Sequence record: EF516996.1
Length of the DNA: 532 nucleotides
Direction: 5' to 3' (one strand)
Origin: a phage
Shown here: piece after piece, positions 1 through 532 of the stretch
Layout of the letters: the number at the start of each line of letters is the position of its first letter
How positions within the stretch are numbered: the stretch's first letter is position 1
The notes under the pieces: model-generated
What the model saw: only the letters and a program-made list of their open reading frames with translations
Databases searched by the model: none
What the model was told of the DNA's origin: nothing
Position numbers and translations under genes: made by a program

Positions 1-532
1 GCTTCGGTCGTATCCGTGACCTTGAAGCTAAGCACTTCAAGAAAAACGTTGAGGAACAACTCAACAAGCGCGTAGGGCACGTCTACAAGAAAGCATTTAT
101 GCAAGTTGTCGAAGCTGACATGCTCTCTAAGGGTCTACTCGGTAGCGAGGCGTGGTTTTCGTGGCATAAGGAAGACTCTATTCATGTAGGAGTACGCTGC
201 ATCGAAATGCTCATTGAGTCAACCGGAATGGTTAGCTTACACCGCCAAAATGCTGGCGTAGTAGGTCAAGACTCTGAGACTATCGAACTCACACCTGAAT
301 ACGCTGAGGCTATCGCAACCCGTGCAGGTGCGCTGGCTGGCATCTCTCCGATGTTCCAACCTTGCGTAGTTTCTCCTAAGCCGTGGACTGGCATTACTGG
401 TGGTGGCTATTGGGCTAACGGTCGTCGTCCTCTGGCGCTGGTGCGTACTCACAGTAAGAAAGCACTGATGCGCTACGAAGACGTTTACATGCCTGAGGTG
501 TACAAAGCGATTAACATTGCGCAAAACACCGC
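1..532 (+). CDS. 1: Internal fragment of bacteriophage T7-type single-subunit DNA-directed RNA polymerase (T7 gene 1); partial at both ends, codon phase begins at position 3, covers approximately residues 151-326
   Basis: Frame 3 on the + strand is open across the entire window (176 complete codons, positions 3-530), whereas frames 1 and 2 hit stops within the first 75 nt. The translation is near-identical to my recollection of T7 RNA polymerase, including the KR and KK motifs at residues 172/173 and 179/180, the GVVGQD hairpin motif and the TGGGYWANGRRPLALVRTHSKK stretch. Codon usage is phage/E. coli-like. Confidence 0.95.
240..287 (+). other. Coding segment for the promoter-intercalating beta-hairpin of T7 RNA polymerase (approx. 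residues 230-245, HRQNAGVVGQDSETIE; Val237 encoded at 261-263)
   Basis: Residue numbering derived by counting from F151 at position 3. The hairpin assignment comes from established structural knowledge of T7 RNAP promoter complexes, not from anything computable in this window. Confidence 0.6.

Follow-up and report, generated by a model that had tools for sequence, protein, structure and literature searches.

Six G:C>A:T differences in a fragment of phage T7 gene 1, with G198S and S202F as probable passengers

An internal fragment of T7 gene 1

The stretch of DNA analysed here, called the window throughout, is the whole 532-nt sequence taken from record EF516996.1. It is an internal piece of gene 1 of phage T7 (Teseptimavirus T7), which encodes the single-subunit RNA polymerase (RNAP). 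By megablast the window aligns over its full length, collinearly and without gaps, to positions 3619-4150 of NC_001604, with 526 of 532 bases the same (98.9%). The same 98.9% was found to more than 40 other T7 records and DE3 prophage, and to 28 E. coli DE3-type chromosomes. The fragment occupies window positions 1-532 on the plus strand and corresponds to nt 449-980 of the coding sequence, running from the last two bases of codon 150 to the first two bases of codon 327. The catalytic C-terminal domain, with D537, Y639, D812 and the specificity loop, lies beyond this end. Translation in the gene 1 frame, which starts at window position 3, gives 176 codons with zero stops; T7 RNAP chains from the PDB align to this translation at residues 151-326, and our residue numbering agrees with both NP_041960 and PDB chain 1cez. 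The sequence contains no ambiguity codes and no other signs of low quality, and shows no indels relative to T7. A minus-strand open reading frame of 95 codons with a TTG start (237-524) lies antisense inside gene 1; nothing supports it as a gene, and the codon composition of the sense frame most likely accounts for it.

Base-by-base comparison with NC_001604 found six differences in the 532 bases (~1.1%), every one of them G:C>A:T, all given here on the plus strand. Two are silent: E187E (codon 187 at 111-113, GAG>GAA, G>A at 113) and E218E (codon 218 at 204-206, GAG>GAA, G>A at 206). The other four are missense: G198S (codon 198 at 144-146, GGC>AGC, G>A at 144), S202F (codon 202 at 156-158, TCT>TTT, C>T at 157), A247T (codon 247 at 291-293, GCA>ACA, G>A at 291) and P274S (codon 274 at 372-374, CCT>TCT, C>T at 372). 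On sequence comparison, the window carries the derived state at all six sites. The initial annotation had singled out G198S and S202F, which together turn LLGGEAWSSW into LLGSEAWFSW. It had correctly given GGC (Gly198) and TCT (Ser202) as the wild-type codons: the T7 references all carry them, AGC and TTT are not the reference state, and comparison with T7 gene 1 confirmed both substitutions. As an account of the differences, its pair was real but incomplete, with P274S among those overlooked.

The wild-type G and C at the codon 198 and 202 sites were found in more than 40 T7 records, 28 DE3 lysogen genomes, five viral contigs and one metagenomic T7 contig. The contigs came from a search with a degenerate 30-mer in which each flagged site could hold the wild-type or the window base; it matched five viral contigs and one metagenomic contig, and six of six were wild type. 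The metagenomic contig (ERZ807347 NODE-48, 39,820 bp, a near-full-length T7 genome) is identical to the reference across the window, so it differs from the window at the same six positions; it is probably laboratory T7 or a spike-in rather than an environmental phage.

We searched for a second copy of this haplotype in several ways. Megablast found no match to the window above 98.9% among 50,697 phage records or among 5,426 E. coli genomes, and 72,556 plasmids gave no match to it of any kind. None of the viral, metagenome and genome contig collections contained the exact 30-mer spanning G198S and S202F. With a 30-residue mutant peptide, tblastn matched 709 phage records, neither substitution was present in any of them, and the best identity was 28/30. 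Scanning IMG/VR with patterns that included WFSWHKED and MFQPCVVS (for F202 and S274) recovered 22 loci, all with S202 and P274. Five distinct T7 RNAP sequences from the PDB are wild type at all four missense sites. Protein-database searches were given no weight as evidence of the allele's absence, since their best matches were at 50-66% identity and they failed to return T7 RNAP and its close relatives.

Across 8 million full texts, no paper was found to name G198S, S202F or P274S in T7 RNAP, and the literature search turned up no deep mutational scan of this enzyme. Only A247T has been reported already, in another background, as part of Mut7 (F162S/A247T; bioRxiv 10.1101/2024.05.23.595468). 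An A247T that appears in an interferon-stimulated-gene preprint was set aside, because it belongs to the gp4 primase and not to the polymerase. The haplotype is thus an unreported allele of a very well-studied enzyme.

Conservation and structural setting of the changed residues

Two groups of relatives were used to judge the changed sites. The close relatives are the 22 IMG/VR loci, at 74-100% nucleotide identity; the distant relatives are 152 family representatives, at most 52% identical, obtained from protein searches. G198, S202 and P274 are invariant in the close relatives (22/22). Among distant relatives, position 198 is Gly in 37 of 74, followed by Asn and Asp, with Ser in one of 74; only 74 of the 152 align there, which makes this column less secure. 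Position 198 looks like a turn position from this residue pattern. At position 202 the distant relatives have variable polar residues (Glu, Asp, Thr, Gln and others) and none of 129 has Phe; the neighbouring tryptophans are conserved, W201 in 69% and W204 in 94%.

Position 247 behaves differently from these. Thr is present in two of the 22 close relatives and is the commonest residue in the distant ones (76/152, against 20/152 for Ala). At position 274, Pro is found in 116 of 149 distant relatives and Ser in two of 149. P274 lies within the motif P270-x-V-V-P274-P275-K-P277-W278, in which P275 and W278 are invariant, and by these counts none of the other three substituted sites is as conserved. 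As for the silent sites, A at window position 113 (E187E) is found in 11 of the 22 natural relatives and A at 206 (E218E) in five of the 22, these five being among the more distant of them. Such sharing is expected by chance, because 68% of the window's silent G:C>A:T sites are polymorphic in the relatives.

An AlphaFold2 model of the fragment was built from a 41-sequence alignment (mean pLDDT 88); made from the mutant sequence, it is silent on the effects of the substitutions. It places helices at residues 152-157, 159-171, 176-192, 206-224 and 248-264, with residues 198 and 202 on a non-helical connector or loop at 193-205. A beta-hairpin at 227-232 and 241-246 is the intercalating hairpin. 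Residue 247 directly precedes the 248-264 helix, and residue 274 lies in an extended proline-rich stretch at 265-281.

The boundary of the H subdomain is reportedly placed near residue 205 (205/206) in the 2002 work of Yin and Steitz. Boundaries in a published review are 151-190 for the H subdomain, 72-150 plus 191-267 for the promoter-binding domain, and 251-296 for the C-linker. Whether the H boundary is taken at 190/191 or at 205/206, G198 and S202 sit where the refolding H subdomain meets the promoter-binding domain. The initial annotation had put the pair in a part of the N-terminal domain that refolds between initiation and elongation, which is approximately right under either boundary.

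These placements suggest what each substitution might do. A247T would be harmless, since Thr is the family consensus at this position. G198S and S202F may alter the connector at 193-205, which joins the H subdomain to the promoter-binding domain. P274 is a C-linker residue, eight residues from P266; the rigidity of the C-linker, P266 especially, governs abortive cycling and sets when the promoter is released (PMC3961267). P274S removes a conserved C-linker proline and, going by conservation, is the most likely of the four to affect function. The encoded polymerase is probably still folded, and any change in its behaviour would probably fall on the initiation-to-elongation transition.

Origin of the six changes

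The uniformity of the changes is unlikely to be accidental. Six of six would be G:C>A:T with a probability of 2.7e-5 if every substitution were equally likely, of 1.7e-3 if transitions were favoured 2:1, and of 7.8e-4 under the spectrum of the natural relatives, in which G:C>A:T makes up 199 of 656 differences (30%). The frame offers 272 possible G:C>A:T changes, comprising 173 nonsynonymous, 85 synonymous and 14 stops. Against the expected 173:85, the observed ratio of 4:2 gives an omega of ~0.98, from a small sample (n=6). Natural close relatives, over the same 528 bases, show 39 nonsynonymous and 617 synonymous differences (6% nonsynonymous), and the window's 4:2 departs from their 39:617 with a Fisher p of 2e-4, in a comparison where the relatives are mutually non-independent. 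The open frame itself is uninformative on selection, because so few of the possible changes are stops that six hits would include none with a chance of ~73%. Nor does the proximity of the two flagged changes carry information. The initial annotation had read their clustering as a signal, and a spacing of 13 nt is at chance level for six hits: when six hits were placed at random on the window's G and C sites, the minimum spacing was 13 nt or less in 54% of simulations (P=0.54).

Our preferred reading, to which we assign a probability of roughly 0.65, is that the window is standard laboratory T7 gene 1 bearing an untargeted G:C>A:T load, and that G198S and S202F are passengers rather than a designed or co-selected pair. 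The starting molecule would have been a T7 gene 1 descended from the standard laboratory sequence. G:C>A:T hits would then have fallen on ~1.1% of positions. Their cause would be an O6-alkylguanine former (nitrosoguanidine or EMS), hydroxylamine, or cytosine deamination, whether enzymatic or chemical. Purifying selection on the protein would have been weak or absent while the mutations piled up, leaving G198S and S202F as two of four missense passengers. The uniform G:C>A:T type, the two silent changes and the dN/dS of ~1 together point to untargeted mutagenesis or damage and away from design or selection acting on two residues; that two of the six changes are silent itself argues against design.

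The sequence context of the changes is compatible with several agents. MNNG and EMS favour G after a 5' purine, APOBEC-type deaminases favour 5'-TC or 5'-CC, and transcription-coupled deamination appears as C>T on the non-template strand. Cytosine deaminases, in base-editor or MutaT7-type tools, also yield G:C>A:T. In the window, a 5' purine precedes the mutated G in four of six cases (p = 0.28; n=6), the contexts on the C strand are TC three times, CC twice and GC once, and G>A to C>T on the coding strand is 4:2 (p = 0.69; n=6). With n = 6, the candidate agents are inseparable by sequence context. Two more specific processes were rejected. Deamination of Dcm or CpG methylation sites does not fit, with a single CpG among the six sites (window 291) and zero in CCWGG. 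Transcription-coupled deamination of the non-template strand is unsupported, the 4:2 majority on the coding strand being G>A and not significant.

Precedent for such a spectrum exists in T7 itself. G:C>A:T is the dominant change when T7 is treated with nitrosoguanidine or hydroxylamine (Springman et al. 2010; Bull et al. 2013, as summarised in PMC6042481), and that summary gives the mutation supply as ~4 viable mutations per genome in each infection under nitrosoguanidine, and as up to 8 per genome under hydroxylamine. In T4, G:C>A:T is raised by heat (PMC8923235). If the density seen in the window were uniform, a 40-kb genome would carry ~450 changes, which would take ~110 generations to accumulate at 4 per generation if they were neutral. 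A first difficulty for the preferred reading is that 1.1% far exceeds what one round of chemical mutagenesis would be expected to leave, and needs many cycles or local hypermutation. A second difficulty is that an essential gene in a replicating phage should normally show some purifying selection.

A possible objection to an untargeted load is that the changes are an artefact of sequencing or template. The underlying DNA would then be wild-type T7 gene 1, whether of a DE3 lysogen, of an expression plasmid or of the phage, read from a deaminated template (through heat, storage, bisulfite-like or FFPE-type damage) or left uncorrected in a low-coverage assembly. Changes confined to C>T and G>A are the classic damage signature, a dN/dS of ~1 is what errors never under selection would give, and both the lack of indels and the lack of a second copy of the missense changes in the public sequences searched suit this explanation. 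However, six errors in 532 bases (1.1%) is high for an assembly consensus once coverage exceeds one or two reads at each site, and the ambiguity codes or other low-quality marks that might accompany such errors are absent. We consider an artefact of sequencing or template unlikely.

A second objection is that all or a subset of the changes (for instance G198S, S202F and P274S) were selected or engineered, with the silent changes hitch-hiking in directed evolution. The routes would be PACE with a deaminase mutagenesis plasmid, error-prone PCR, or selection of a weakened T7 RNAP in expression hosts, and such an allele would act on promoter clearance, abortive cycling, dsRNA by-products or the level of activity. 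Three of the missense changes do lie in parts that move at the initiation-to-elongation transition (the loop at 193-205 and the C-linker at 251-296). N-terminal-domain substitutions (P266L, F162S/A247T, K180E and V214A) alter by-products and abortive cycling, A247T itself came out of a screened variant, and the frame is intact. The intact frame carries no information, however, and designed variants come without silent transitions. G198S, S202F and P274S occur in no paper found and in no plasmid, PDB or genome record searched, and the 4:2 ratio is the neutral expectation and so gives no statistical sign of positive selection.

Restriction sites offer no rescue for design. The C>T at 157 destroys a BbsI/BpiI site (GTCTTC, window 155-160), one of three BbsI sites; those at 171 and 477 are intact, as is an AarI site at 324. 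We therefore reject Golden Gate domestication, given that S202F is missense and that the BbsI sites at 171 and 477 remain. On this evidence a selected or engineered allele seems improbable. Its functional version, in which G198S, S202F and P274S, arising through evolution driven by a deaminase or an alkylating agent, would jointly retune the initiation-to-elongation refolding (abortive cycling, promoter release and by-products), we hold to be distinctly improbable.

Natural variation, with the window coming from a wild T7-like phage close to T7, is very improbable. Three of the six states (A at 113, A at 206 and Thr247) do occur in some relatives, but sharing of this extent is expected by chance (P = 0.47 for the pair of silent sites and 0.36 for one or more of the missense sites). 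The natural relatives differ from T7 at no fewer than 25 window positions, nearly all silently and with G:C>A:T in the minority, and G198, S202 and P274 do not vary in any of them. Recombination with a natural relative is ruled out as well, as the relative-specific differences that lie 1-9 nt from the shared sites are missing in the window. Here the initial annotation, which had not expected neutral drift to produce the pair, is borne out: G198 and S202 do not vary among the 22 IMG/VR relatives, and neither change occurs in the 709 phage records. Its proposal of an engineered or selected allele, or an artefact, was in the right general area insofar as a laboratory allele or an artefact is concerned; the special status that it gave to the pair is unsupported, these being two of six G:C>A:T changes with a dN/dS of ~1.

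The allele has little biological weight in itself, being unreported but unremarkable, with a pattern that fits a familiar mutational process. Its use is rather that it flags the source sequence as mutagenised, damaged or error-laden and not natural, which bears on how the other parts of that sequence are read. It also shows how misleading the two flagged changes are when judged by themselves; the full set of differences from the ancestor must be weighed jointly. Should the encoded enzyme prove active, its P274S, G198S and S202F changes would serve as cheap probes of the C-linker and of the connector between the H subdomain and the promoter-binding domain in the initiation-to-elongation transition.

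Relation to known T7 polymerases and mutagenised T7

The nearest known system is wild-type T7 gene 1 (NC_001604 3171-5822, NP_041960), also present as the DE3 copy in BL21(DE3), with which the window shares 172 of 176 residues. It is set apart from that gene by the six G:C>A:T transitions, that is, by G198S, S202F, A247T, P274S and two silent changes, none of them seen in the T7 and DE3 records searched. The mutagenised T7 populations of Springman 2010 and Bull 2013 have the same phage genome, and in the summary given by PMC6042481 they combine a spectrum dominated by G:C>A:T with a high mutation supply. The likeness of the window to these populations is one of spectrum and implies no identity of genome; the source of the window may be a phage genome, a plasmid or a lysogen copy.

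Among polymerase variants, P266L gives fewer short abortive products and a delayed transition to elongation (PMC3961267). P274S differs from it in affecting another residue, in lying outside the 258-266 hinge, and in being Pro>Ser rather than Pro>Leu; an effect of P274S on abortive cycling is conjecture. Mut7 (F162S/A247T), a low-dsRNA variant obtained by error-prone PCR and droplet sorting (bioRxiv 10.1101/2024.05.23.595468), is active and has the window's A247T, which makes A247T compatible with activity. The window, in contrast, is wild type at F162, and its G198S, S202F and P274S are absent from the Mut7 study. The best combined variant of that study, Mut17 (A70Q/F162S/K180E), dropped A247T.
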